Sequence record: DRR723986_2999 | Strand: one strand, 5' to 3' | DNA length: 42,698 bases | Part shown: positions 21,344 to 42,591 of the stretch, one piece after another | Numbering within the stretch: position 1 is the stretch's first letter | Layout: each line of letters starts with the position of its first letter | The notes under the pieces: model-generated | Told to the model about the DNA's origin: nothing | The model's database searches: none | What the model saw: the letters and a program-made list of their open reading frames with translations, nothing else | Made by a program: the position numbers and the translations under genes

Positions 21344-21799
21344 ATGCCGGTTGCAGAAATTGAAACATGGCTGGGACGCCTTTCCATTACGGAAGTTGAC
21401 GGCGCATTCACCCAATTACACTGGAACGGGCCCTCTGGCAAAGAAGAAACACCGTTGCTCAAGGAAGCGGCACGCCAGGTACAGGCCTATCTCGCGGGTG
21501 ATCTGAAAACCTTCGACCTGCCGCTCGCCCCGAAAGGCGGCGAGCTGCACCAGGCGGTGTTCAAGGCGATGCTCGCAATCCCCTATGGCGGAACCCGCAC
21601 CTATGGCGACCTTGCCAGGGAACTGGACACATACGGGCAGCCGATCGGCCAGGCCTGCGGCGCCAACCCGATACCGATCATCATCCCCTGCCACCGGATC
21701 CTGTCGGCGAACGGCCTTGGCGGATATTCCGGCTCGGGCGGTACGGAAACAAAGATCGCCCTTCTGAAACTGGAGGGTGGCTACCCGTTCCTGGTCTAG
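21344..21799 (+). CDS. ogt: Methylated-DNA--protein-cysteine methyltransferase
   Basis: IPYGGTRTYG and NPIPIIIPCHR (PCHR active-site motif). Confidence 0.93.
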   Translation: MPVAEIETWLGRLSITEVDGAFTQLHWNGPSGKEETPLLKEAARQVQAYLAGDLKTFDLPLAPKGGELHQAVFKAMLAIPYGGTRTYGDLARELDTYGQPIGQACGANPIPIIIPCHRILSANGLGGYSGSGGTETKIALLKLEGGYPFLV

Positions 21800-21940: not shown

Positions 21941-23914
21941 TCACAGGACCAGAGAATCTGCTCCCGTGATCTCGACAAACTGCGGTCGGCTGTCGGGCAG
22001 CTCAAGCTCGTCTGCAAGCGCCGCCAGCGGGTCTGCATCCCTCAACGGTCCGAAATCGAAGCCCGACAGTTCTTCCAGAAAGGCAACGGACACCTGGAAC
22101 GTCTTGTATTCACCAAAGGCGAACCCTTCGACAGCTTCCGACTCGCGGCGGTCCTGCAGGTATTTCTGAATGGCCTGTCCCTGGCTTAACAGATAGGCGG
22201 TCGCGTGCAGGCGAAGACTGCCGTCGTCCTGCAAGGCATCCATCACCACCACTTTCCAGTACTGCAGGGGCAGATTGATGCCGACCCCATCGAGGAACGG
22301 ATCCTCGTCGTCGTCGAAAAGGGGGCCGGTAAAGACCGTTGCCCGGAAGGCATGGGTCTTTGTGCTGTCGAGGATATGGTTTTCCAGACCTTGCCAGGTG
22401 GACCGGTTCTGGTTGAGGGAGGAATGCTGCGGCGAGGCGTTCGTGTAGTGGAACGTATCGTCGTTTGCCAGTTGCGCCACCGGGCGGTCATCGCCCCAGT
22501 TCGGGTCCTCGCGCCGAACCATGTGTCCCCGGTCCAGATCTCCCGGGAAGTCGCCCTTGCCGAGCTGCGCTTCCACCGGAATGCGCCGATCGAAAAACCA
22601 CTTGTCCGGTTTCTTGCGTTTGATCTTGATTGCCTTTTCGCCGTCGATGTTGACGACAGTGACCACGGGGCTTCTGCGATCGACATCATAGAGAAGCCCG
22701 AAGTGGGTATAGCGCAGCTCATGCGGACGGCCGGCGAGCGCATCCGTCGGGCTGGCCAGATTGAACATGCCGTCCGGCAACTTCGGAAAGTCGACCTTTT
22801 TCGACAGGAAGTTGGGATCGTAGCCGTTCCGGCCGATAAAATGGTTCGGGTCGTGGAATCCGTCGGCCACCTCCTGTTCAAGGCTAGCCTCGACCAGGAC
22901 CTGCGTGGGCCGGTTGCCTGACAGAAGGTCCCGCAGCGTGCTCGCCCTGACAGCGCTGTTGGCAATTCCATAGGCTCCGGCGAAGTGCAACCCCACCACC
23001 TTGTTGCGATCAAGGCTCAGGATCGGCGAGCCGGAGTTTCCACCGAGCGTGGTGCAGTCGTGGCTGAGTACGGCTCCCGGCGCAACCGGCATCATCTTGC
23101 CCGGAGCAAACCGCTTCACATCGTAGAGACCCTTGAAATACTTCTCCATTTCGGTGCGATCGTTTCGGCTGTCGAAGGCCGGATAGCCGATCACCGCGAC
23201 GATCTCGTCCGTTTCCGCGTCCGTATCCACCAGAGGCAAGGGCGCAACGGCGAAGCCGGCAGGTTTTTCGATCCGCCCGATCGCGACGTCGGCGCTGGCA
23301 TCATCTGCAAGATAGGTGAAGCGAAGGATCTCGGCCGGGCGCTCGTCTGACGGCAACGCGCCAACCTCTTCGTTGAAATCCACGCGCGCACCGTAACGGA
23401 CCATCGTGAAGGGCGAGCGCATGAAGACGCCCTCTCCCCTGGCGTTTCGGCGTGCGACAATCTTGGCGACGTGCCGGTTGGTCACGACAAGAAGATGCCG
23501 GCCATCGGCTTCTTCTCCAACCACCCAGGCGGTTCCGCCCCAGGTCATCGAGTGGTTGATGAATTCAACCCGCCCGACCGAGCCGATCCAGTGTTCGTTC
23601 CGCTTGATCTTGATGTCTATGTCGGCACCGAACTCATCCGGCAGCGGGATCAGCGAGACCGCGCCGTTTTCAACGACCATCGGCGGCCGGGTAACCAGTC
23701 GCACGATGGCTTCCAGTTGCGTCAACGGCGTGCCGGCGGCTTCAAGCTGGCCGAGGGACATATCCAGCGCATCAAGCGTATCCGGTATGTCCAGTCTAAG
23801 TTGCTCGACAAAGGGGTGTCCTGCCTCGATGGCGCGTTTCGCAGCCTCAAGCCGTCCGCCCGATTTCAATGCTTCGAGCCGTCCCTGACTTTCCAATAAT
23901 GCTCGCGTGTTCAT
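21941..23914 (-). CDS. Trypsin-like serine protease fused to DNA/RNA non-specific endonuclease (EndoG/NucA family)
   Basis: Triad H148 (TNRHV), D209 (ADVAI), S294 (TTLGGNSGS). The nuclease has DRGH (H464) and TFHYTNASPQ...LNQ..W.GLEN. Strong GGAGGA Shine-Dalgarno upstream. Confidence 0.92.
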   Translation of the reverse strand: MNTRALLESQGRLEALKSGGRLEAAKRAIEAGHPFVEQLRLDIPDTLDALDMSLGQLEAAGTPLTQLEAIVRLVTRPPMVVENGAVSLIPLPDEFGADIDIKIKRNEHWIGSVGRVEFINHSMTWGGTAWVVGEEADGRHLLVVTNRHVAKIVARRNARGEGVFMRSPFTMVRYGARVDFNEEVGALPSDERPAEILRFTYLADDASADVAIGRIEKPAGFAVAPLPLVDTDAETDEIVAVIGYPAFDSRNDRTEMEKYFKGLYDVKRFAPGKMMPVAPGAVLSHDCTTLGGNSGSPILSLDRNKVVGLHFAGAYGIANSAVRASTLRDLLSGNRPTQVLVEASLEQEVADGFHDPNHFIGRNGYDPNFLSKKVDFPKLPDGMFNLASPTDALAGRPHELRYTHFGLLYDVDRRSPVVTVVNIDGEKAIKIKRKKPDKWFFDRRIPVEAQLGKGDFPGDLDRGHMVRREDPNWGDDRPVAQLANDDTFHYTNASPQHSSLNQNRSTWQGLENHILDSTKTHAFRATVFTGPLFDDDEDPFLDGVGINLPLQYWKVVVMDALQDDGSLRLHATAYLLSQGQAIQKYLQDRRESEAVEGFAFGEYKTFQVSVAFLEELSGFDFGPLRDADPLAALADELELPDSRPQFVEITGADSLVL

Positions 23915-24070: not shown

Positions 24071-27000
24071 CTAGAACAATGTCGACGCGTCGACCGGTTC
24101 GTTTCTTTTCGCAGCATCAGCCCCGATCACGGCCAACGCCGCTGTCAGGGCTGGCCCCATGAGCCTGGGTGCAAGGGCAGCTGCAATGTCCTGGGCAGAG
24201 CCCGCGGTCATCGCCATTGCCAGCGGCCGCATCAGCCGTCGCTCGAAAACACTCCGGGCACGCCGGGCCCCTTCTTCCGTGTCGGGATAGTCGGCCGCAT
24301 AGGCCAATCGCCGCAACAGCGCCCGGGCGGTTGCTGGCGGATCCTTCCGCGAAAGCAGACTGGTGACCCGCGCCATCAGCAAGACATCGCTCTCGCCGTT
24401 GCCCCAGTAAGACGGCGGCGTACCCGGGTAGGACCAGATACCGCCACTGAAGCGACGCCACCGTTCGGCCGCCCGCGCAACCGTCGGCGCATCCGGAACA
24501 GCATTGAACACTGCAAATGCCCCTACCCAGTCGCAGGTAAGGCCCAGTGCCCCCAGAATTTCCGGTCCTTCGATCTCGATGTCGCTGGAATAGCGTTCGA
24601 AACTGTCGAAGAGATCAGGCGTTCCCAGCATCTCCAGCGTTTCATGCAACCCCTCGTAAAAGCCGCGCAGATATTGCGCCATGCGCGGACTGTGCTGAAT
24701 GCGTGCAAGAACGCTCAAGGGCGCGATCGCAGGGTTCATTCGGGCAATGGTGTGCTGATCCGTGTCGGGATGCTGCTGTCCGGTCATGATCGCAAACCGC
24801 TCGGCGCGGTTGGCACCCTGCCGGATTGCATCTGCCGGGTACTCCGAAACCCTCTCGCCGAACCTGAAGACGGACATGGCAACCGGATCCAGGATCTCCA
24901 CATACTCCGGCCGCCCTTCCTGGCTGGCCATGAGAGCGAATTCCAGCGCCCCTTTCAGGGCAATCCTGGAACCCTCGGAACGCGCCTGCCAGGCTGTTGC
25001 CGCCAGTTTTTCATCACCACGCAACCGGGCGACAAGTCCGTCGAAATCCGCTTCCGCCTCGATTTCCAGCAGGACCAGCCCGTAGAGGCCCGGGTCTTCC
25101 CGGCTCAATCGTTCCAGCAGGGATTTCGGCAGCTTCCGCCAAAGGGACATGGCCCGCGCCCACTGGCCGGAGAGCCAGAAATACGCAAGCGTGGCAGCAG
25201 CTTCGGGACGGGAAGGTAACGGATTTCGCGGAAAGGCGTTGTTGAGGGTGAAGATATGATCGGCCTCGAACACATCGCCCCGCCGAAGGGTCAGTTCGAG
25301 TTCGCGGATCAGTTCCGGCTCGACCTCCTCCGCTTTCGAAGTCGGAACCGGTTCGGATGTTCCCTGCTCGCTGCTGGTGTAGCGCGCGCGGCGCGAGCGT
25401 TCCCCGCGCTCCTGCAGAATGGCATTCGTCGCCGGAAGAGGAAGTTCGTCCAGTTCATCTTCGCTGAGGCCCGCAACGTCGGCTGCGGTGAATTCGGGCA
25501 TCGGGTCTCCGGCACGCGTCACCTGGAAGGCATGATAGAGCGCGGTCTCACGGTCAAACCCGGCAAACCAGTTTGCTGCCGCCCGGTCTATTCTTGCGGC
25601 CAGCTCCGGCTTTTCGACGTAGAGCATGGGCAGGATTTCCCGCCGCAGGTCGCTGCGGTGTTTCAGCCAGTCCTGACCGTCAACGGCCACCAGCCAATGG
25701 TGGCTGCTGAGTTCCTGCCAAAGTCGCCTGGACGCAGCTTCGTCGATATGCTCACCGAGCCCGAGCGCCGGCGCCAGAACGAACTGGATTGCCTCGGCGC
25801 TGATCCGGCGCAGGACAAGACCAGGGTGTGCCAGCTTCGCCAGCAGCGGGTCGTCAATGCGCGAAAGGATAGCCCGGTAAAGATAGGCTTCCGTGATGCT
25901 GCCTGCTTCGCCGTATTCCAGTTCGCCCGGATCGAAGTCCTCCGCCTGCGTTACCTTGGCTGAAAGCCGCAGCATCAGCGGGTTGCCACGCGAAAGTTCG
26001 AAGATCCTGTCATGCAAATCCGGCGGAGCCCCCAACTTGTCCAGAAGATTGCGGGATTCCGTCTCGCTCAGACCTTCCAGCTCCAGAGGCGGTCCCTCGA
26101 TGCGTTTGCGGACGGAATCGAGCGCATCTCCCCGTCCGGCCGCAATGATCGAGATCGGCGACAGCCCGGCCCGCACCAGATTGTCCAGAACCTCGAACAG
26201 CAGAATGGGCCGGGTTTCGCCATGACCGCGCAACACTTCAAGCGTATCCAGCACCAGGACCACCTGCCCGCCATGCGAGCGCACCGCAGCGCCCATGGCA
26301 TCGACCAGCTCGGTCGGCAAAAGGGTACTGCTCACCGTCGTGCCGGTCGTTTCCGCATTGCCGGAATACTTGAGCCTCAGGTCGCGCAGTCTGGGGGCTT
26401 CGTCTGTCAGGATGTCACCCAGCTGGCGGGAGAGCTCATGCACCAGCTTGTCGGGATCTTCCAGGTTCAGCCCGCGCCGGTCGAAGTCCAGGCGCAGAAC
26501 GATTGGCGCCTTTTGAACAGACCTGTGTTCCGCCATTGCCCGGTCAATCAGAAAGGATTTGCCGATGCCCGGCAGGCCGGTGATGAACAAGGCGCTGACA
26601 GGTGTTTTTTCCTGAGGCCGCGCGCACCAGTCGAGCAAGCGGGCCAGTTCCTTCTCCCGGCCAAAAAACTCTCGGCTCAGCATGGCATTGGCCCGCCTTG
26701 CTGCATCCACGCGGTTCATGACACCGCGCAGGCGCACCAGCAACGGATAGGCAGGCGCACTCGGTCCGGCCCTGTCGAGGTCATCGGATATCTCCTCGAT
26801 CCGTTTGAGCTGATCCTGCTCGGGCAGATCCGGAGTCTCCGCAATCAGTCGTTCGATGGTCTCCTGCGAGAACGGTTCGTCACCACGCAGGGCTCTGGCA
26901 ACAGGTGTGTCTTCCTCCGGTGTTTCGATGGTCTTGAGCACACCATGGCGAGGCCCGTTGCGAAGAGACCAGACCGGCTCGGAGGATATTTCCAGGACGA

Positions 27001-27169
27001 CCTTGTTGAGCTCTGTCAGCAGCCGGGCAATCGTCAATGGCGTCAGCTTGTCCTGCAAGACCTTGGACGCCGCCTCCACCGCATCACGCGGCGTGAAGGT
27101 TTTGCGCGTTGCGGCAAACCGCATGGCCGCCTTCAGGCCTTCCGCGAGCTGATCAGCGTCCTTGCTCAT
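24071..27169 (-). CDS. STAND-class (NLR-like) P-loop NTPase with C-terminal helical/TPR-like region
   Basis: FFGRE, Walker A GLPGIGKS (K204), Walker B VVLVLD (D308), sensor IIAAGR, LEGLS, GxP motif RGNPL, winged-helix end KHRSDLRR, ALYH, then about 450 aa of helical sequence. Confidence 0.85.
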   Translation of the reverse strand: MSKDADQLAEGLKAAMRFAATRKTFTPRDAVEAASKVLQDKLTPLTIARLLTELNKVVLEISSEPVWSLRNGPRHGVLKTIETPEEDTPVARALRGDEPFSQETIERLIAETPDLPEQDQLKRIEEISDDLDRAGPSAPAYPLLVRLRGVMNRVDAARRANAMLSREFFGREKELARLLDWCARPQEKTPVSALFITGLPGIGKSFLIDRAMAEHRSVQKAPIVLRLDFDRRGLNLEDPDKLVHELSRQLGDILTDEAPRLRDLRLKYSGNAETTGTTVSSTLLPTELVDAMGAAVRSHGGQVVLVLDTLEVLRGHGETRPILLFEVLDNLVRAGLSPISIIAAGRGDALDSVRKRIEGPPLELEGLSETESRNLLDKLGAPPDLHDRIFELSRGNPLMLRLSAKVTQAEDFDPGELEYGEAGSITEAYLYRAILSRIDDPLLAKLAHPGLVLRRISAEAIQFVLAPALGLGEHIDEAASRRLWQELSSHHWLVAVDGQDWLKHRSDLRREILPMLYVEKPELAARIDRAAANWFAGFDRETALYHAFQVTRAGDPMPEFTAADVAGLSEDELDELPLPATNAILQERGERSRRARYTSSEQGTSEPVPTSKAEEVEPELIRELELTLRRGDVFEADHIFTLNNAFPRNPLPSRPEAAATLAYFWLSGQWARAMSLWRKLPKSLLERLSREDPGLYGLVLLEIEAEADFDGLVARLRGDEKLAATAWQARSEGSRIALKGALEFALMASQEGRPEYVEILDPVAMSVFRFGERVSEYPADAIRQGANRAERFAIMTGQQHPDTDQHTIARMNPAIAPLSVLARIQHSPRMAQYLRGFYEGLHETLEMLGTPDLFDSFERYSSDIEIEGPEILGALGLTCDWVGAFAVFNAVPDAPTVARAAERWRRFSGGIWSYPGTPPSYWGNGESDVLLMARVTSLLSRKDPPATARALLRRLAYAADYPDTEEGARRARSVFERRLMRPLAMAMTAGSAQDIAAALAPRLMGPALTAALAVIGADAAKRNEPVDASTLF

Positions 27170-28908
27170 GGCGATGATGCTCCTTCGGCCGGAAGCAACG
27201 GTGCGAGAGACCTTTGCAGATTTTCCGAGACGGTTTTCACTTCCGCACTGCGATAGACCGTTCCCTGGGCTTGCACGCCGTGAAGGGCCTGCATCAGAAC
27301 GAAATCGACCACATGCGTCGGCAGGCCAAGCCCCAGCGATCGGTTGATCGCCTCAAGCGTATGACGCACATCCTCGCGGTCGAACTGGCCGATGTAATCC
27401 ACCATCACCCCCGGCCCGGTCAGCGCACTGGCATTTTCCGCCTTTGGCCCCGGAACGCTGTATGTCTCTCCACCGGCCATGACAAATCGAAGGCGCGTAT
27501 CGCTCAGGATCATTGCCAGAAGCAGTTCCAGTTGCTGTTGTGCCGCCTTGCGCAAGCCTCCGCGCGGATTGTCGAAATAAATCCAGCTCGGCTTGTCCGC
27601 GGTTGCGCCGGTCGTCTTGGCCAGGAGGTCCACCAGTTGTCTGGCGCGGTCCTTGTCGCTTGCCCCTTCACTGGTTTCGTCGTCCGCAGCCCCCGGCCGT
27701 GCCAGCAGCGGCGTTCCGCCGTGCAATCTCTCGTTCAGCGTTTCCAGCAGGTCTTCCATTCCCAGAGACAGTTCAACCCTGAACACCTGCGCCGCTTGAC
27801 CGTTCTGCGCCAGAACCTGACACAAGAGATCGTAGGAAAATTCAAGACCGGTCGTCTGGTCGATTTCCATCCGCTTGATCCAGATCCCGCGCAAGTGACG
27901 GGCGGCTCCCCGCACCACGTCATGGATGGCATGACAATAGCGCTGCCGTCCGATAATCAGATGACCATCGACACGCCCTGTCAGCGAATAGATGTAAGGC
28001 GGTGCCCGGTCCTCCGCAATTGCCTGGGTAAATTCCTCTATGCCAGCGAAGGTGGCGTAAGGAACGATCTCGGAAACGCCGTTCAGCTGTCCCTGATGGA
28101 AGCCTGCGAATGCAAGATCCGTGTCGAAAACCGACCCGCCTGACGACCCGGGTTTGGTGACGCCGTCCTCCCATTCCAGTTGGATACGAGGAGGATCATC
28201 GATCGTCGCCCGACCGGTAACGAAGGTGACGCCCCTGCCGTTGTCGTCCTGTCTGTGGCTCAGGCAAAGCTTTCTCCGCCCGGTGATCCACGCCGGAGGT
28301 TTCGCCGGCAATTCGTAATACGTTGTCATCGGTTGCTCGATGGCGAGCAAGGCGACATCCGGGTTGGCACGCAGGATATCCCCGTCCTGCAGGCCGACAT
28401 CCCATTGATCGTCATGGCAAGGCATCTCGAAACGCACACCAAGCACGCGCAGCGACTTGCTCCCTTCTTGCGTGCGAACCGTGAGGCCGGACCGGCGCTC
28501 CTTCCGCTTGTCCTTGACCGTCACATGCCAGGCGGTCAGCGCGAGCCGGTGAGACACGAGTGTCGCGATACCGCAAAATCCTATTTCATCGAAAACATAC
28601 AGCTTGAAGCCCAGCATCTTGTGCGCGAAATCACCGAGATCCTCGAGGTCGAAATTGGCGGCGTTGATCGGCTCGATTGGTTGGGTGAGGTGGAACATGA
28701 ACTCCCAGCCGAGATTTTCCTCGTTCAGAAAATCAGCCAGCAGTTCTTCAAGAGGCTGCCCGGTGATGCCCGCCGTGCTGCGCAAGGCATCCAGCGTCAT
28801 CAGGGAATCCGTGAACCCCTGAACCCGGCGCAACACCCTGTCGACAGCCGCTTCATTCTGCTCCAGATGCTGCTTCAGCTCTGCACTGGTTACCGGCATG
28901 ACCAACAC
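27166..28908 (-). CDS. Trypsin-like serine protease fused to a degenerate STAND-like P-loop domain
   Basis: Triad H128 (TAWHV), D184 (PDVALL), S256 (TKPGSSGG). The C-terminal half has IIGRQ, a degenerate Walker A (DQTTGLEFS), Walker B-like WIYFDN and LRFVMAG. Stop overlaps the next start (ATGA at 27166-27169). Confidence 0.8.
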   Translation of the reverse strand: MLVMPVTSAELKQHLEQNEAAVDRVLRRVQGFTDSLMTLDALRSTAGITGQPLEELLADFLNEENLGWEFMFHLTQPIEPINAANFDLEDLGDFAHKMLGFKLYVFDEIGFCGIATLVSHRLALTAWHVTVKDKRKERRSGLTVRTQEGSKSLRVLGVRFEMPCHDDQWDVGLQDGDILRANPDVALLAIEQPMTTYYELPAKPPAWITGRRKLCLSHRQDDNGRGVTFVTGRATIDDPPRIQLEWEDGVTKPGSSGGSVFDTDLAFAGFHQGQLNGVSEIVPYATFAGIEEFTQAIAEDRAPPYIYSLTGRVDGHLIIGRQRYCHAIHDVVRGAARHLRGIWIKRMEIDQTTGLEFSYDLLCQVLAQNGQAAQVFRVELSLGMEDLLETLNERLHGGTPLLARPGAADDETSEGASDKDRARQLVDLLAKTTGATADKPSWIYFDNPRGGLRKAAQQQLELLLAMILSDTRLRFVMAGGETYSVPGPKAENASALTGPGVMVDYIGQFDREDVRHTLEAINRSLGLGLPTHVVDFVLMQALHGVQAQGTVYRSAEVKTVSENLQRSLAPLLPAEGASSP

Positions 28909-29197
28909 CGTATCGAGAATCGTTAAAACAATGGAGCCTGTCTCTTCGAGCCGGCACGTCAGTCAACCGCCGACGGTCGGATGAGAATATGCGTCTTGTC
29001 GGTCAAAATACGGCCAACCGCACGTTCTCCCAGGCTTCGGAACCTAAGGACACAATTATAGCGTCATTCAAGCTGAAAATAAACGCACAAGTATACGCCG
29101 ACTGATGCGGCCGCAGACGCTGAAAAGGACGGTCCTGTGCTCGCAGCAAAGCAACAGGTATCGTCCTCATTCCACTCGTCCTGACGCCGAAACCCGT

Positions 29198-29536
29198 TTA
29201 CCGAACGAATTCGACGGTCACGAAAACAAGTTCCGCTTCACCCGTGTTGGTGAGATCGTGCACGAAGGCCGTATCCGGCGACAGATCCGACATATGCCGG
29301 GTATCACCCGCCCTGTAGGTCACGTCCAGAATGCGGCCATCCGCCTGACGAGAAGTCGCCTTGCCATCGGTCAGGACGCTCCAGAAATAAGGCCGCTCGT
29401 GCCGGTGGGCGGGCAGTGTCTCTCCCGGCGCCAGTCGAAGATGCCAGACTTTCACGCCGTTTACTTCCGACACCAGATGCGTCCCGACCCTGTCGGTCGC
29501 CATTGCGATCTCTGCCTTGCTCATTGGGTTGGTCAT
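29198..29536 (-). CDS. Cupin domain protein
   Basis: LAPGE.LPAHRH and HDLTNTG...LVFVTVEF. ATGA overlap with the OYE stop. Confidence 0.85.
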   Translation of the reverse strand: MTNPMSKAEIAMATDRVGTHLVSEVNGVKVWHLRLAPGETLPAHRHERPYFWSVLTDGKATSRQADGRILDVTYRAGDTRHMSDLSPDTAFVHDLTNTGEAELVFVTVEFVR

Positions 29537-30624
29537 GCTGCCACCGGATAGCTTGTGTAACCTGCGGCATCGCCACCGAAGAGCGTCGACCCGTCGAAAT
29601 CGGCAAGCGGCAATCCATCCGCCAGGCGGCGCGGAAAGTCCGGGTTCGCGATGAAAGGACGACCGAAGGCAACGAGGTCCGCATATCCATCTGCAAGGAT
29701 CCGGTCTGCCTTCACCTTGGTATAGCCACCGGCAACAATGACGGTACCGGAGTAGACCTCTCGCAAGGCAGCCCGGAAGCTTTCGGGCGTTTCAGGCGCG
29801 TCGTCCCAATCGGCCTCGGCAAGATGAACATAGGCAAGACCGATCTTGTCCAGTTCCCCGGCGAGCTTCAGGATCGTCTCAGGTGCTGCCGGATCGTCCA
29901 TGCCGCGCTGGGTGATGAAGGGTGAAAAGCGAATGCCGGTCCGCTCCGCCCCCATGACTTTTGAAACGGCATCGGCCACTTCCCGCGCAAACCGGATGCG
30001 GTTTTCCTGACTGCCGCCATAAGCATCCGTCCGCCGATTGGAGGTCGATCGCAGGAATTCGTCGATCAGATACCCATTGGCGGCATGGATCTCGACACCG
30101 TCAAACCCGGCTGCCCTGGCGTTGGCTGCAGCTGTCTGGTAGTCCTCGACGATGGCAGAAATCTCTTCAGCCGTGAGTGCTCGCGGAACGGGACATTCGA
30201 TCATGCCACCCTGCCCGGTCTCCGGATCAACCGCCCAGATGGACGCACCCGGGGCGATGGCCGAAGGAGCGACCGGCTGGCCTCCACCCTGGAACTGGGC
30301 ATGGCTCATGCGGCCGACATGCCAGAGCTGCAACACCATGCGTCCGCCTTTTTGGTGAACGGCGTCCGTCACCTTGCGCCAGCCATCGACCTGTTCCGCC
30401 GAATGGATACCGGGAGTGAGGCTGTAACCCTGGCCCTGCGGTGAGATCTGCGTGGCCTCGCTGACAATCATCCCGGCGCTTGCCCGTTGGGCGTAATAGT
30501 CCGCCATCATGTCATTGGGCACATTGCCCGGCTGCGTACTGCGCGAGCGCGTCATGGGAGCCATCACGATGCGCGACGGCAGGGCAAGCGGACCGAGGTC
30601 ATATCGGTCGAACAGGCTGGTCAT
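29533..30624 (-). CDS. Old Yellow Enzyme family alkene reductase (NemA-like)
   Basis: MAPMTRSR, YYAQRAS, QLWHVGR, EIHAANGYL (HxxN and Tyr), FGRPFIANPD. Start MTSLF at 30624. Confidence 0.94.
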   Translation of the reverse strand: MTSLFDRYDLGPLALPSRIVMAPMTRSRSTQPGNVPNDMMADYYAQRASAGMIVSEATQISPQGQGYSLTPGIHSAEQVDGWRKVTDAVHQKGGRMVLQLWHVGRMSHAQFQGGGQPVAPSAIAPGASIWAVDPETGQGGMIECPVPRALTAEEISAIVEDYQTAAANARAAGFDGVEIHAANGYLIDEFLRSTSNRRTDAYGGSQENRIRFAREVADAVSKVMGAERTGIRFSPFITQRGMDDPAAPETILKLAGELDKIGLAYVHLAEADWDDAPETPESFRAALREVYSGTVIVAGGYTKVKADRILADGYADLVAFGRPFIANPDFPRRLADGLPLADFDGSTLFGGDAAGYTSYPVAA

Positions 30625-41142: not shown

Positions 41143-42591
41143 ATGCCAAGCGTGAGCAAAAAACTCTATTCCGGCCACACGTTGAGGCAAATCCGCTCGG
41201 ATTTCGGCCTTTCCCAAGTGGAGTTTGCAAAGAAAATCGGCCTGTCCACCGCCTATGTGAACCAGATCGAAAACAACAACCGCCCGGTCACCGCCTCGGT
41301 GTTGCTAACGATTAACAGGATCTTTGGCGTCGATCTGTCGGCTTTCGAGCAGAACGACCTCGACCGGGTGGTGCAGGATCTTCAGGAAATTTTCGCCGAC
41401 ACCCAGTTTCTGACAGCCTCCGTCGGCCGGCAAGAAGTGCATGAGCTGGTCACTCGGGCACCAGGCGTCACCAAGGCGATCATGGATCTTTACGGCGCGC
41501 TGCGGACCTATCACGACCGGGAAGCGAACGAGGACGATCTGGTCCAGCTCGGCGGTAGTCCGGAAAGCGGTCCCGGACCTCGGAAATCCGCTTATGAAGA
41601 GGTCCGCGACTATTTCCACTACATGGACAATTACGTCGACAGCATCGACCGGGCCGCAGAGAAGCTCTCTCTGGAGATCGGACTTTCGAAAGCCCCTTCG
41701 AAGTTCACCGCCCTGACCACCTGGCTTCAGGAACGCTTCGGTATATCGGTCACGGAATTTCCGGACTATCGAGGCACGTTGATCCGTCAGGACGATTTCG
41801 CCCGCACCATCGCGCTCTACAGTGCCATTCCGCAATCGACCAAGAGCTTCCTGCTTGGGTCAGTCGTCGCCGAACTGTGTGTGCGGGACCTCATTTCGGA
41901 AGAGGTCACCAGGGCAAGGTTCAAGACCAAGTCGGCGGAAAGCATCGCGCGGCTGGCCTTGCGGAACTATTTCGCGGGCGCCTTGATTCTGGCCTATGAC
42001 GACTTCCTGAAAACCGCTGCGGAAACCCGGCACGACATCCAGCTTCTGTCCAACCGGTTGGACGCAAGTATCGAGACCGTCTGCCACCGTCTATCGACCC
42101 TGCAACGCCCCGGCGCCAAAGGTCTGCCGTTCTACTTCGTGAAGATCGACCGGGCCGGCAACGTCGTCAAACGCCACAGCGCAACCCGGTTTCAGTTCGC
42201 CCGCTTCGGCGGCTCCTGCCCGCGCTGGAACGTCCATCAGGCCTTTGAACAGAACTCCAACAAGTTCACCTCGCAGGTCGCCCAGATGCCTGACGGAGTA
42301 CGCTATCTTTGCGTGGCGACCAGCATCACCAAACACCAGCCGGACTACCGCAGCGGCGAGCGCCGCTACGCGCTTGGTATCGGCTGCGAGGTGCAATATG
42401 CCGATGCGGTGGTCTATGCCGACGGGCTTGCGGTCGACGAGATCTCCTCGCCCGAGCCCATTGGCGTCAACTGCCGCATCTGCCCTAGGGACAATTGCGA
42501 CCAGCGCGCCTTCCCGGCCGTCGACAAGGAACCTTTCATCGATTCTGGCCAGCGCGGTATCGTTCCGTATCGGGTGAAAGCGGCGGATTAG
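41143..42591 (+). CDS. Short-chain fatty acyl-CoA regulator (ScfR family; RamB/PccR/PrpR-like)
   Basis: XRE HTH (LSQVEFA..IGLS.AYVNQIENNNRP), ETVCHRLSTLQRPG, DRAGNV.KR.SA, GGSCPRW, C-terminal CRICPRDNCDQRAFP. GTG at 41152 is an alternative start. Confidence 0.93.
   Translation: MPSVSKKLYSGHTLRQIRSDFGLSQVEFAKKIGLSTAYVNQIENNNRPVTASVLLTINRIFGVDLSAFEQNDLDRVVQDLQEIFADTQFLTASVGRQEVHELVTRAPGVTKAIMDLYGALRTYHDREANEDDLVQLGGSPESGPGPRKSAYEEVRDYFHYMDNYVDSIDRAAEKLSLEIGLSKAPSKFTALTTWLQERFGISVTEFPDYRGTLIRQDDFARTIALYSAIPQSTKSFLLGSVVAELCVRDLISEEVTRARFKTKSAESIARLALRNYFAGALILAYDDFLKTAAETRHDIQLLSNRLDASIETVCHRLSTLQRPGAKGLPFYFVKIDRAGNVVKRHSATRFQFARFGGSCPRWNVHQAFEQNSNKFTSQVAQMPDGVRYLCVATSITKHQPDYRSGERRYALGIGCEVQYADAVVYADGLAVDEISSPEPIGVNCRICPRDNCDQRAFPAVDKEPFIDSGQRGIVPYRVKAAD

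Follow-up and report, generated by a model that had tools for sequence, protein, structure and literature searches.

The 42,698-nucleotide stretch from sequence record DRR723986_2999 (hereafter the window) carries on its minus strand three consecutive genes, named A, B and C here, that encode a protease with an ATPase-like tail, a STAND ATPase resembling NLR proteins and a second protease fused to a nuclease. By its homology to published systems, the cassette is a diverged member of the LypABC/CARD-NLR family. [quoted passage not shown] A preliminary description of the window had taken the start of B for a winged helix as well, but had regarded A and B as a split tandem STAND, cut at the ATGA junction of the two genes, in which this domain completes the dead NTPase of A in trans and docks the protease onto the sensor. 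The winged helix and the general docking idea were retained, whereas the partner proposed for it was not: experiments on the homologous proteins point to the N-terminal CARD of A and not to its ATPase-like tail.

A cassette of the LypABC family

Banks et al. (Nat Microbiol 2026; PMC13236601, cited throughout from the accessible part of the article) described LypABC of Caulobacter crescentus, which has the same three-gene layout as the window. The serine of LypA, the serine of LypC and the Walker A and Walker B residues of LypB are each needed for lysis, while the nuclease residues of LypC are dispensable. To place the window cassette, homologues of B were collected in a word-indexed search, which gave 287 proteins at E ≤ 0.001. 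The nearest were ~90% identical, one of them named Labrenzia sp. One genome per species was used for a locus scan, and the resulting 33 related loci span Roseibium and Stappia, Rhodobacterales, Rhizobiales, Caulobacter, sphingomonads, Pseudomonas, Burkholderia, Kribbella and Chloroflexia, so that Alpha-, Beta- and Gammaproteobacteria, Actinobacteria and Chloroflexia are represented. An A-like gene was found by tblastn directly upstream of B in 32 of the 33 loci; in the remaining one, 215 bases of the contig precede B. Downstream of B, 28 loci have a C-like gene, 45–55% identical. Among the five loci without it, three are cut by the contig end, and two sphingomonad loci have no C within ~5.6 kb. 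The A-B pair is the constant core of the cassette and the third gene is exchangeable.

The two sphingomonad loci (Sphingobium terrigena and Sphingomonas sp. Leaf67; L022:2810-4183 and the matching site of L023) encode a 457-aa lipase-like α/β-hydrolase of the LCAT/DUF676/PGAP1 type, which ends four bases before the A homologue and is apparently an exchanged effector in place of C. Downstream of B, both loci also contain a Metallophos and SMC_N gene pair resembling SbcCD.

The stop codon of A and the start codon of B overlap by 4 nt in 22 of the 32 loci and by 1 nt in four, with the start unsettled in six; these counts depend on the start-codon choice made in the analysis. In none of the 32 loci with room for A do A and B share one reading frame. 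Since they are separate genes in all of these, the window's split did not arise from a sequencing frameshift at 27166–27169, as considered in the preliminary description.

One of the loci (L031, Caulobacter vibrioides DSM 9893) has open reading frames of 592, 1027 and 662 aa and carries all nine published mutated residues, namely LypA S262, T356, S360 and F361, LypB K230 and D335, and LypC S296, H471 and N505. Given these residues and the protein lengths, L031 was identified as lypABC. The products of the window genes A, B and C match it with E-values of 2e-38, 3e-80 and 0, respectively, and the assignment of the cassette to the family follows from the identity of L031 together with the homology of all three proteins. 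Window and LypABC agree in their three genes, the gene order and the domain content: a CARD-like, a trypsin-like and a Walker-less ATPase-like domain in the first protein, an N-terminal domain, a STAND ATPase and helical repeats in the second, and a trypsin-like protease with an endonuclease in the third. The homology extends along all three proteins, and the overlap of A stop and B start is present in L031 and in the window alike. In contrast, A and B are only ~30% identical and C 52%, the host is not Caulobacter, with Roseibium, Labrenzia and Stappia as nearest sequence relatives, and no evidence of a link to a gene transfer agent was seen in the window; a CdxB-type regulator was not searched for.

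Natural fusions were found with an exhaustive profile search of the B N-terminal domain against 1.84 billion representatives. It matched 228 proteins at E ≤ 0.001, and the 150 that were listed have B-like length or are fragments or fusions. In four of these 150 (P0170, P0183, P0201 and P0232), the domain is internal at about residue 600–650 and stands between an N-terminal Trypsin_2 domain and AAA_16. They are natural A-B fusions, of which the preliminary description had spoken. Residues 16–606 of P0183 align with the whole of A (E = 2e-43). P0232 (WP_395665571.1, Methylocella sp., 2277 aa) joins A, B and C in one chain, in the order trypsin, Walker-less ATPase-like domain, N-terminal domain, nucleotide-binding oligomerisation domain (NOD), helical region, trypsin and Endonuclease_NS, while P0012, P0048, P0169, P0229 and P0234 are B-C fusions. 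The linkers from the end of A to the first helix of B have ~15–50 residues, some with a high share of Pro and Ala. The A-B fusions are all clusters of one member, each on a single contig, where an occasional assembly error is possible; the differing linker lengths argue that the fusions are real. A word-indexed search for longer proteins containing A had returned none, a false negative in view of the later exhaustive profile search. What the fusions show is joint action of A, B and C, not which of their surfaces touch.

The family also includes a protein with a B-type N-terminal domain and two complete NOD modules in tandem (P0013, 1508 aa, from a metagenome-assembled genome named Ruegeria sp.), with AAA_16/NPHP3_N matches at about residues 182–322 and 606–771. 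Tandem NOD duplication therefore occurs among B proteins.

The N-terminal domain of B and its probable partner in A

The stretch highlighted in the preliminary description (27169..26930, minus strand) corresponds to residues 1–80 of B, as checked by coordinates and sequence, and includes the part quoted there, AMRFAATRKTFTPRDA...RNGPRHGVL. Pfam contains no domain for B(1–165). An AlphaFold2 model of this region, built on a 33-row alignment, reached a mean pLDDT (per-residue confidence) of 94.7 and a pTM (predicted template modelling score) of 0.84 and shows a single compact domain with a helix (3–20), a strand at 25, two helices (27–37 and 44–55), two strands (58–60 and 67–69), a helix (71–78) and then four more helices. 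The order of helix, short strand, helix, helix, β-hairpin and helix in residues 1–78 of the model is that of a winged helix. When the model was compared to the PDB with Foldseek, there were no matches at E ≤ 0.001 and the best E-value was 0.058; the weak best matches were nearly all winged-helix proteins, namely PadR, MarR, IclR, MukF, ScpB, the N-terminal domains of O-methyltransferases and the cullin WHB domain. The latter (3tdz_D) was aligned with a TM score of 0.74 normalised to the target and a root-mean-square deviation (rmsd) of 2.7 over 75 columns. Based on the model topology and these matches, a winged helix at the N-terminus of B is supported as a prediction. ESM Atlas yielded only scores ≤0.80 for B(1–165), with WHD_MalT as a lead at 0.75 and thus under the usable range, and PDB sequence searches with profiles of the B family and of the B N-terminal domain gave no informative relatives.

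A20, F25, W67, R70, R74 and G135 are invariant in this domain among 33 sequences. W67, R70 and R74 are located in the hairpin and the next turn of the predicted winged helix (B 66–74, window 26948–26974). B thereby has the conserved N-terminal domain of ~150–190 aa that is found in NLR-like proteins of such systems.

A further observation of the preliminary description, a loose parallel between the first 80 residues of B and B's own internal winged helix, could not be substantiated. The internal stretch quoted for it is B 445–513, which follows the GNPL (GxP) motif at aa 395–398. BLASTP of B(1–165) against the rest of B did not find the parallel, and a first profile comparison of the two regions returned only the trivial overlap of their alignments. 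With locus-based profiles, the best local hhalign alignment was B43–78 with B476–513, in the register proposed earlier, at E = 0.17 and a probability of 0.4%; with deeper 38-row profiles, another alignment was preferred (E = 0.094, probability <1%). At the level of sequence profiles, the likeness of the two winged helices is not above chance, and homology of the N-terminal one to a STAND winged-helix domain is not detectable.

The C-terminal part of A was modelled as A(300–580) with a pLDDT of 86.3 and a pTM of 0.84. The model consists of a five-stranded α/β core followed by three terminal helices and nothing beyond them. Foldseek against the PDB yielded 235 matches at E ≤ 0.001; those listed are without exception AAA+ ATPases, including RFC subunits, FtsH, RuvBL, proteasomal Rpt, p97 and the archaeal Walker-type ATPase 2qen. 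TTGLEFS (27835–27855) occupies the P-loop position and lacks the Walker A lysine. Compared to a complete STAND NOD, residues 310–580 of A have the P-loop α/β core and the lid and are devoid of Walker A and of the winged helix that would follow. R321, R346, D386 and E481 are invariant in this domain. Pfam has nothing in the last 280 residues of A, and no iSTAND-type match was obtained for the tail at E ≤ 0.1. The model therefore agrees with the earlier assessment of the tail as a STAND-like NTPase fold that stops behind a short helical part and lacks a winged helix. Calling it dead may be too strong: LypA also has an ATPase-like domain without Walker motifs, its pocket triple mutant is inactive, and the authors suggest ATP binding (PMC13236601). 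The tail of A is collinear with the NOD of B over 132 columns (hhalign E = 0.0046, probability 7.6%), with IIGR and FFGRE, the degenerate loop and GLPGIGKS, and WIYFDNP and LVLDTLE as paired motifs; this is a weak match of the two modules.

The partner of the B N-terminal domain can be judged from the experiments of Banks et al. on the Caulobacter proteins. Full-length LypA and LypB bind one another, and not LypC. When all domain pairs were combined in a two-hybrid matrix, the contact between LypA and LypB was that of the CARD with the LypB N-terminal domain, for which AlphaFold3 gave an ipTM (interface score) of 0.85, and no contact of the LypA ATPase-like domain with LypB domains appears in the matrix as described in the accessible text. 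LypB without residues 1–180 was stable and inactive, which the authors ascribe to the lost A-B contact. The LypB N-terminal domain also showed weak self-interaction. The anatomy, motifs, cassette conservation, family membership and fusions reported here were computed, while the CARD contact and the requirement for the domain, for the two protease serines and for the LypB Walker residues stem from these experiments on homologues.

In the favoured mechanism, B would be an ATP-dependent STAND switch with a C-terminal helical sensor, and its residues 1–165 would act as one adaptor composed of the winged-helix core (1–78) and four helices. By homology to LypB, this adaptor probably docks protease A on the sensor by binding the N-terminal CARD-like helical domain of A. 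Once triggered, B would oligomerise and bring the tethered A proteases together, leading to their activation, and activated A could then work jointly with the protease-nuclease C, act on it or have other targets, and cause cell death or lysis. We infer both that the CARD/N-terminal domain contact also exists in the window's organism and how events follow one another after activation. A proteolytic relay that runs from A to C or to further targets may be envisaged.

Several points weigh against this mechanism. The CARD contact was measured in Caulobacter, and A and B of the window are only ~30% identical to LypA and LypB. The CARD fold of the A N-terminus is putative, as it is based on the family alignment and on a non-significant best match of the family profile in the PDB, the MDA5 tandem CARD 7dni_A (E = 0.059). 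This domain is also the least conserved part of the cassette with a mean p-distance of 0.75. Two-hybrid negatives of isolated domains can miss a weak or nucleotide-dependent second contact, and the LypA protein with the ATPase deletion was unstable (PMC13236601). In a distance-correlation (mirror-tree) test with p-distances, the partial correlation of the B N-terminal domain was 0.20 with the CARD and 0.22 with the ATPase-like domain of A. Finally, the LypC nuclease is dispensable for lysis in Caulobacter.

The mirror-tree test comprised 23 complete cassettes after ten loci had been dropped as cut, frameshifted, without C or near-duplicate. With Kimura distances, where 24 of 253 pairs were lost, the residual correlation of the B N-terminal domain was 0.27 with the ATPase-like domain of A and -0.02 with the CARD. 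The winged-helix core alone, measured with p-distances, gave 0.02 (p = 0.38) with the ATPase-like domain and 0.14 (p = 0.017) with the CARD. As the result shifts with the distance measure, the test was rejected as evidence in either direction. An ESMFold2 complex prediction of A(300–580) with B(1–165) scored 0.00 in both runs; it was carried out with alignments unused and without controls and weighs neither way.

The mechanism of the preliminary description, in which A and B each represent one half of a tandem STAND and the winged helix of B packs in trans on the Walker-less nucleotide-binding domain and first helical domain (HD1) of A, thereby completing a pseudo-NOD and docking the protease, is improbable. 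The order of modules is in its favour: A lacks a winged helix behind its AAA+-like core and lid, B has one at its very start ahead of further helices, and these modules are adjacent in that order in the natural A-B and A-B-C fusions. It is also in line with the existence of a family member with two tandem NODs, with the weak collinearity of the A tail and the B NOD, with the inactive pocket mutants of LypA, according to which the domain matters, and with distance correlations of the B N-terminal domain that are as high with the ATPase-like domain as with the CARD. However, no positive evidence was obtained for the completion in trans, and the domain-by-domain two-hybrid matrix of LypABC contradicts it. 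The N-terminal and internal winged helices of B have no significant sequence relation, no STAND winged-helix domain is among the Foldseek matches listed, and the hhalign probability for the A tail and the B NOD is low. Moreover, the fusion linkers are unlike the short link between HD1 and winged helix of a NOD, and the split form is the common one, being present in 32 of 32 loci. The split-tandem-STAND idea is thus unproven.

A combination of both contacts has a similarly small chance of being correct. Besides binding the CARD, the winged-helix core of B might make a second, perhaps nucleotide-dependent contact with the ATPase-like domain of A to give a composite pseudo-NOD beside the active NOD, and the pair might have descended from a tandem STAND in which the first module turned into a regulatory subunit that carries a protease. 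If true, the composite pseudo-NOD would explain the inactive LypA pocket mutants as well as the adjacent modules in the A-B and A-B-C fusions.

It is also rather unlikely that the ATPase-like domain of A joins the NOD ring of B by contacts between nucleotide-binding domains in an active/inactive hetero-oligomer, with the B N-terminal domain mainly serving autoinhibition or self-association. Toroidal hetero-multimers of paired active and inactive STANDs, the inactive one carrying effectors, were predicted by Kaur et al. 2021 (PMC8195603, accessible part), and the weak self-interaction of LypB's N-terminal domain and the four invariant residues in the ATPase-like domain of A are compatible with such a ring. 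On the other hand, the two-hybrid matrix contains the contact of CARD and N-terminal domain and, as far as the accessible text describes it, none of the LypA ATPase-like domain with LypB, and the authors tie the inactivity of LypB without its N-terminal domain to the lost A-B contact. A role of the B winged helix as a nucleic-acid-binding module that senses DNA or positions the system on it is very unlikely: the top Foldseek matches are DNA-binding winged helix-turn-helix regulators (PadR, MarR, IclR) and the wing has the invariant R70 and R74, but no match reached E ≤ 0.001, the full-length rmsd of ~15 Å leaves only the generic fold in common, winged helices that do not bind DNA match equally well or better (cullin WHB), and a protein partner was shown for the homologous LypB domain.

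Other features of the cassette and its surroundings

The positions of genes, domains and motifs are summarised in Table 1. A lies upstream of B and C downstream, with a gap of 156 bases between B and C. The 580-aa form of A is counted from a GTG codon; an alternative ATG start at 28899 would give 577 aa.

Table 1. Positions of the cassette genes, their domains and selected motifs in the window.
Feature	Position	Strand	Description
Gene A	27166..28908	minus	580 aa from GTG 28908; LypA-like CARD-protease with Walker-less ATPase-like tail
A residues 1-100	28609..28908	minus	putative CARD-like N-terminal domain; aligned across family
A residues 108-300	28009..28587	minus	trypsin-like (S1B, glutamyl-endopeptidase-like) serine protease; predicted triad H128, D184, S256
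A residues 310-580	27169..27981	minus	predicted AAA+/STAND-like nucleotide-binding fold and helical lid; AlphaFold2, Foldseek, alignment
ATGA overlap	27166..27169	minus	TGA stop of A and ATG start of B; read directly from the sequence
Gene B	24071..27169	minus	1032 aa; LypB-like STAND/NLR-like ATPase
B residues 1-80	26930..27169	minus	predicted winged-helix core of N-terminal domain; AlphaFold2 model, Foldseek, alignments
B residues 81-165	26675..26929	minus	four-helix part of the same domain (predicted); conserved LDRAGP motif, G135 invariant
B residues 166-560	25490..26674	minus	NOD, active type by motifs
B Walker A GLPGIGKS	26555-26578	minus	NOD motif
B Walker B LVLDTLE	26237-26257	minus	NOD motif
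B GxP GNPL	25976-25987	minus	NOD motif
B internal winged helix with KHRSD	25649-25663 (KHRSD)	minus	within NOD
B residues 561-1032	24074..25489	minus	conserved helical C-terminal region, presumed sensor; no Pfam family
Gene C	21941..23914	minus	657 aa; LypC-like trypsin-like protease fused to NucA/Endonuclease_NS nuclease
C GGNSGSP	23024-23044	minus	protease motif
C DRGH	22523-22534	minus	nuclease motif

The N-terminal region of A aligns with the N-termini of its Caulobacter homologues, and the tblastn alignments to the loci of C. radicis and C. zeae begin at residue 6 of A. ESM Atlas gave no usable match for A(1–105). For the protease domain, the Pfam family Trypsin_2 was found on residues 116–264 with a weak E-value of 1.5e-4, under the curated cut-off, while the family profile matched glutamyl endopeptidases in the PDB with E = 1.8e-9. 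H128, D184 and the G254-S255-S256-G257 stretch are invariant in 31 sequences, and the catalytic motifs of the serine protease of A are intact.

The NOD of B is recognised by Pfam on residues 167–377 (AAA_16 with E = 2e-11, NPHP3_N and weakly NACHT). G198, G201, G203, K204, S205, D308, T309 and E311 are invariant in 38 sequences, and with GxxGxGKS and D308 among them, Walker A and B of the protein are intact. The conserved columns of the C-terminal region include W665, G668, W670, W904, R905, G910 and W912; the corresponding region of LypB was described with TPR-like repeats (PMC13236601).

Gene C matched Trypsin_2 with E = 4.3e-14 and Endonuclease_NS with E = 6.2e-45. Upstream of its trypsin domain (residues 67–78, window 23681–23716), a near-invariant LEAIVR..GRPP motif was observed, in which E68, A69, I70, R76 and P77 do not vary among 27 sequences. 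A processing site is one possible role, a pro-enzyme segment for inhibition or tethering another. A homotypic adaptor of the EAD type at the N-termini of A, B and C was considered as well and rejected: profile comparisons of the N-termini gave E-values of 0.098–0.14 with probabilities <1%, and BLASTP among A, B and C found nothing.

No defence or phage genes were recognised among the scanned window neighbours in a family-library scan, a further likeness to lypABC, near which no recognised defence genes are reported in the accessible text of Banks et al. Neighbours that matched a family are housekeeping genes for transporters, regulators, an Ogt methyltransferase and oxidoreductases. PADLOC-DB 2.0.0 (2023), with no match at E ≤ 1, and NCBIfam yielded no family for gene A or gene B. 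The gene for the Ogt-type 6-O-methylguanine-DNA methyltransferase (21344–21799, plus strand) lies just downstream of C and convergent with it; a functional link is not evident. Near the window end, a regulator gene with HTH_3, Peptidase_M78 (IrrE-like) and ScfRs domains (41143–42591, plus strand) is unrelated to the cassette. An open reading frame of 148 aa divergent from A (29105–29551) was treated as spurious due to its odd, Arg-rich composition and the lack of a Pfam family.

Relation to known systems and significance

The anti-phage CARD-NLR systems of Wein et al. (preprint PMC10312443, accessible part; Nature 2025) have CARD-like domains at the N-terminus of such proteases that are needed for phage defence. 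Their NLR-like protein has, like B, a conserved N-terminal domain of ~150 aa, which was described as without similarity to known domains. Effectors are swapped in these systems, comparable to the lipase-like hydrolase next to A in the two sphingomonad loci. The Lysobacter prototype differs in having four genes, gasdermin as effector and an NLR-like protein with a CARD-like domain at its C-terminus. Among the anti-phage operons, those of the Azospirillum type are counted, like LypABC, as relatives of the window cassette, which has no gasdermin and is not known to have a phage-defence phenotype.

A mostly alphaproteobacterial NucA-trypsin conflict system ('System 3') was described by Kaur, Burroughs, Iyer and Aravind (eLife 2020; PMC7159879, accessible part). 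It combines trypsin-like peptidases with NucA/Endonuclease_NS, sometimes fused, and some of its STAND components are fused to a Death-like domain (bDLD2) and an N-terminal trypsin, which equals the layout of gene A. In contrast to the window, where B is an active STAND encoded separately and with an N-terminal domain of its own, the accessible part of this purely computational description mentions neither such a protein nor the inactivity of the trypsin-fused STAND module. The iSTAND/iSTAND2 modules of the MoxR-vWA ternary systems (Kaur et al. 2020, 2021, accessible parts) are also Walker-less and STAND-like, with a trypsin-like peptidase and a Death-like or EAD adaptor fused to their N-terminal side; they differ from the window, which has no MoxR or vWA genes and where the partner is an active STAND. 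The accessible part of a 2026 preprint surveying STAND proteins (10.64898/2026.01.04.697583) contains nothing specific on the A/B family.

Descriptions of this type of system, of the conserved N-terminal domain and of the docking by it have thus already been published. The new points are the predicted winged-helix core with the invariant W67, R70 and R74 and the single-chain A-B, B-C and A-B-C forms. They are small additions, given that neither is named in the accessible texts of Banks et al. (PMC13236601) and the Wein preprint (PMC10312443), in which the word 'winged' is absent and A-B fusions are not mentioned.

Altogether, a cassette from a Roseibium/Labrenzia-like genome was placed in the CARD-NLR/LypABC family, and a plausible-looking mechanism was corrected by published domain-interaction data. 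The picture of how such systems work is unchanged by these results. For the family, W67, R70 and R74 are obvious candidates for mapping the interface with protease A, and single-chain forms such as P0232 could ease structural work on the assembled complex.

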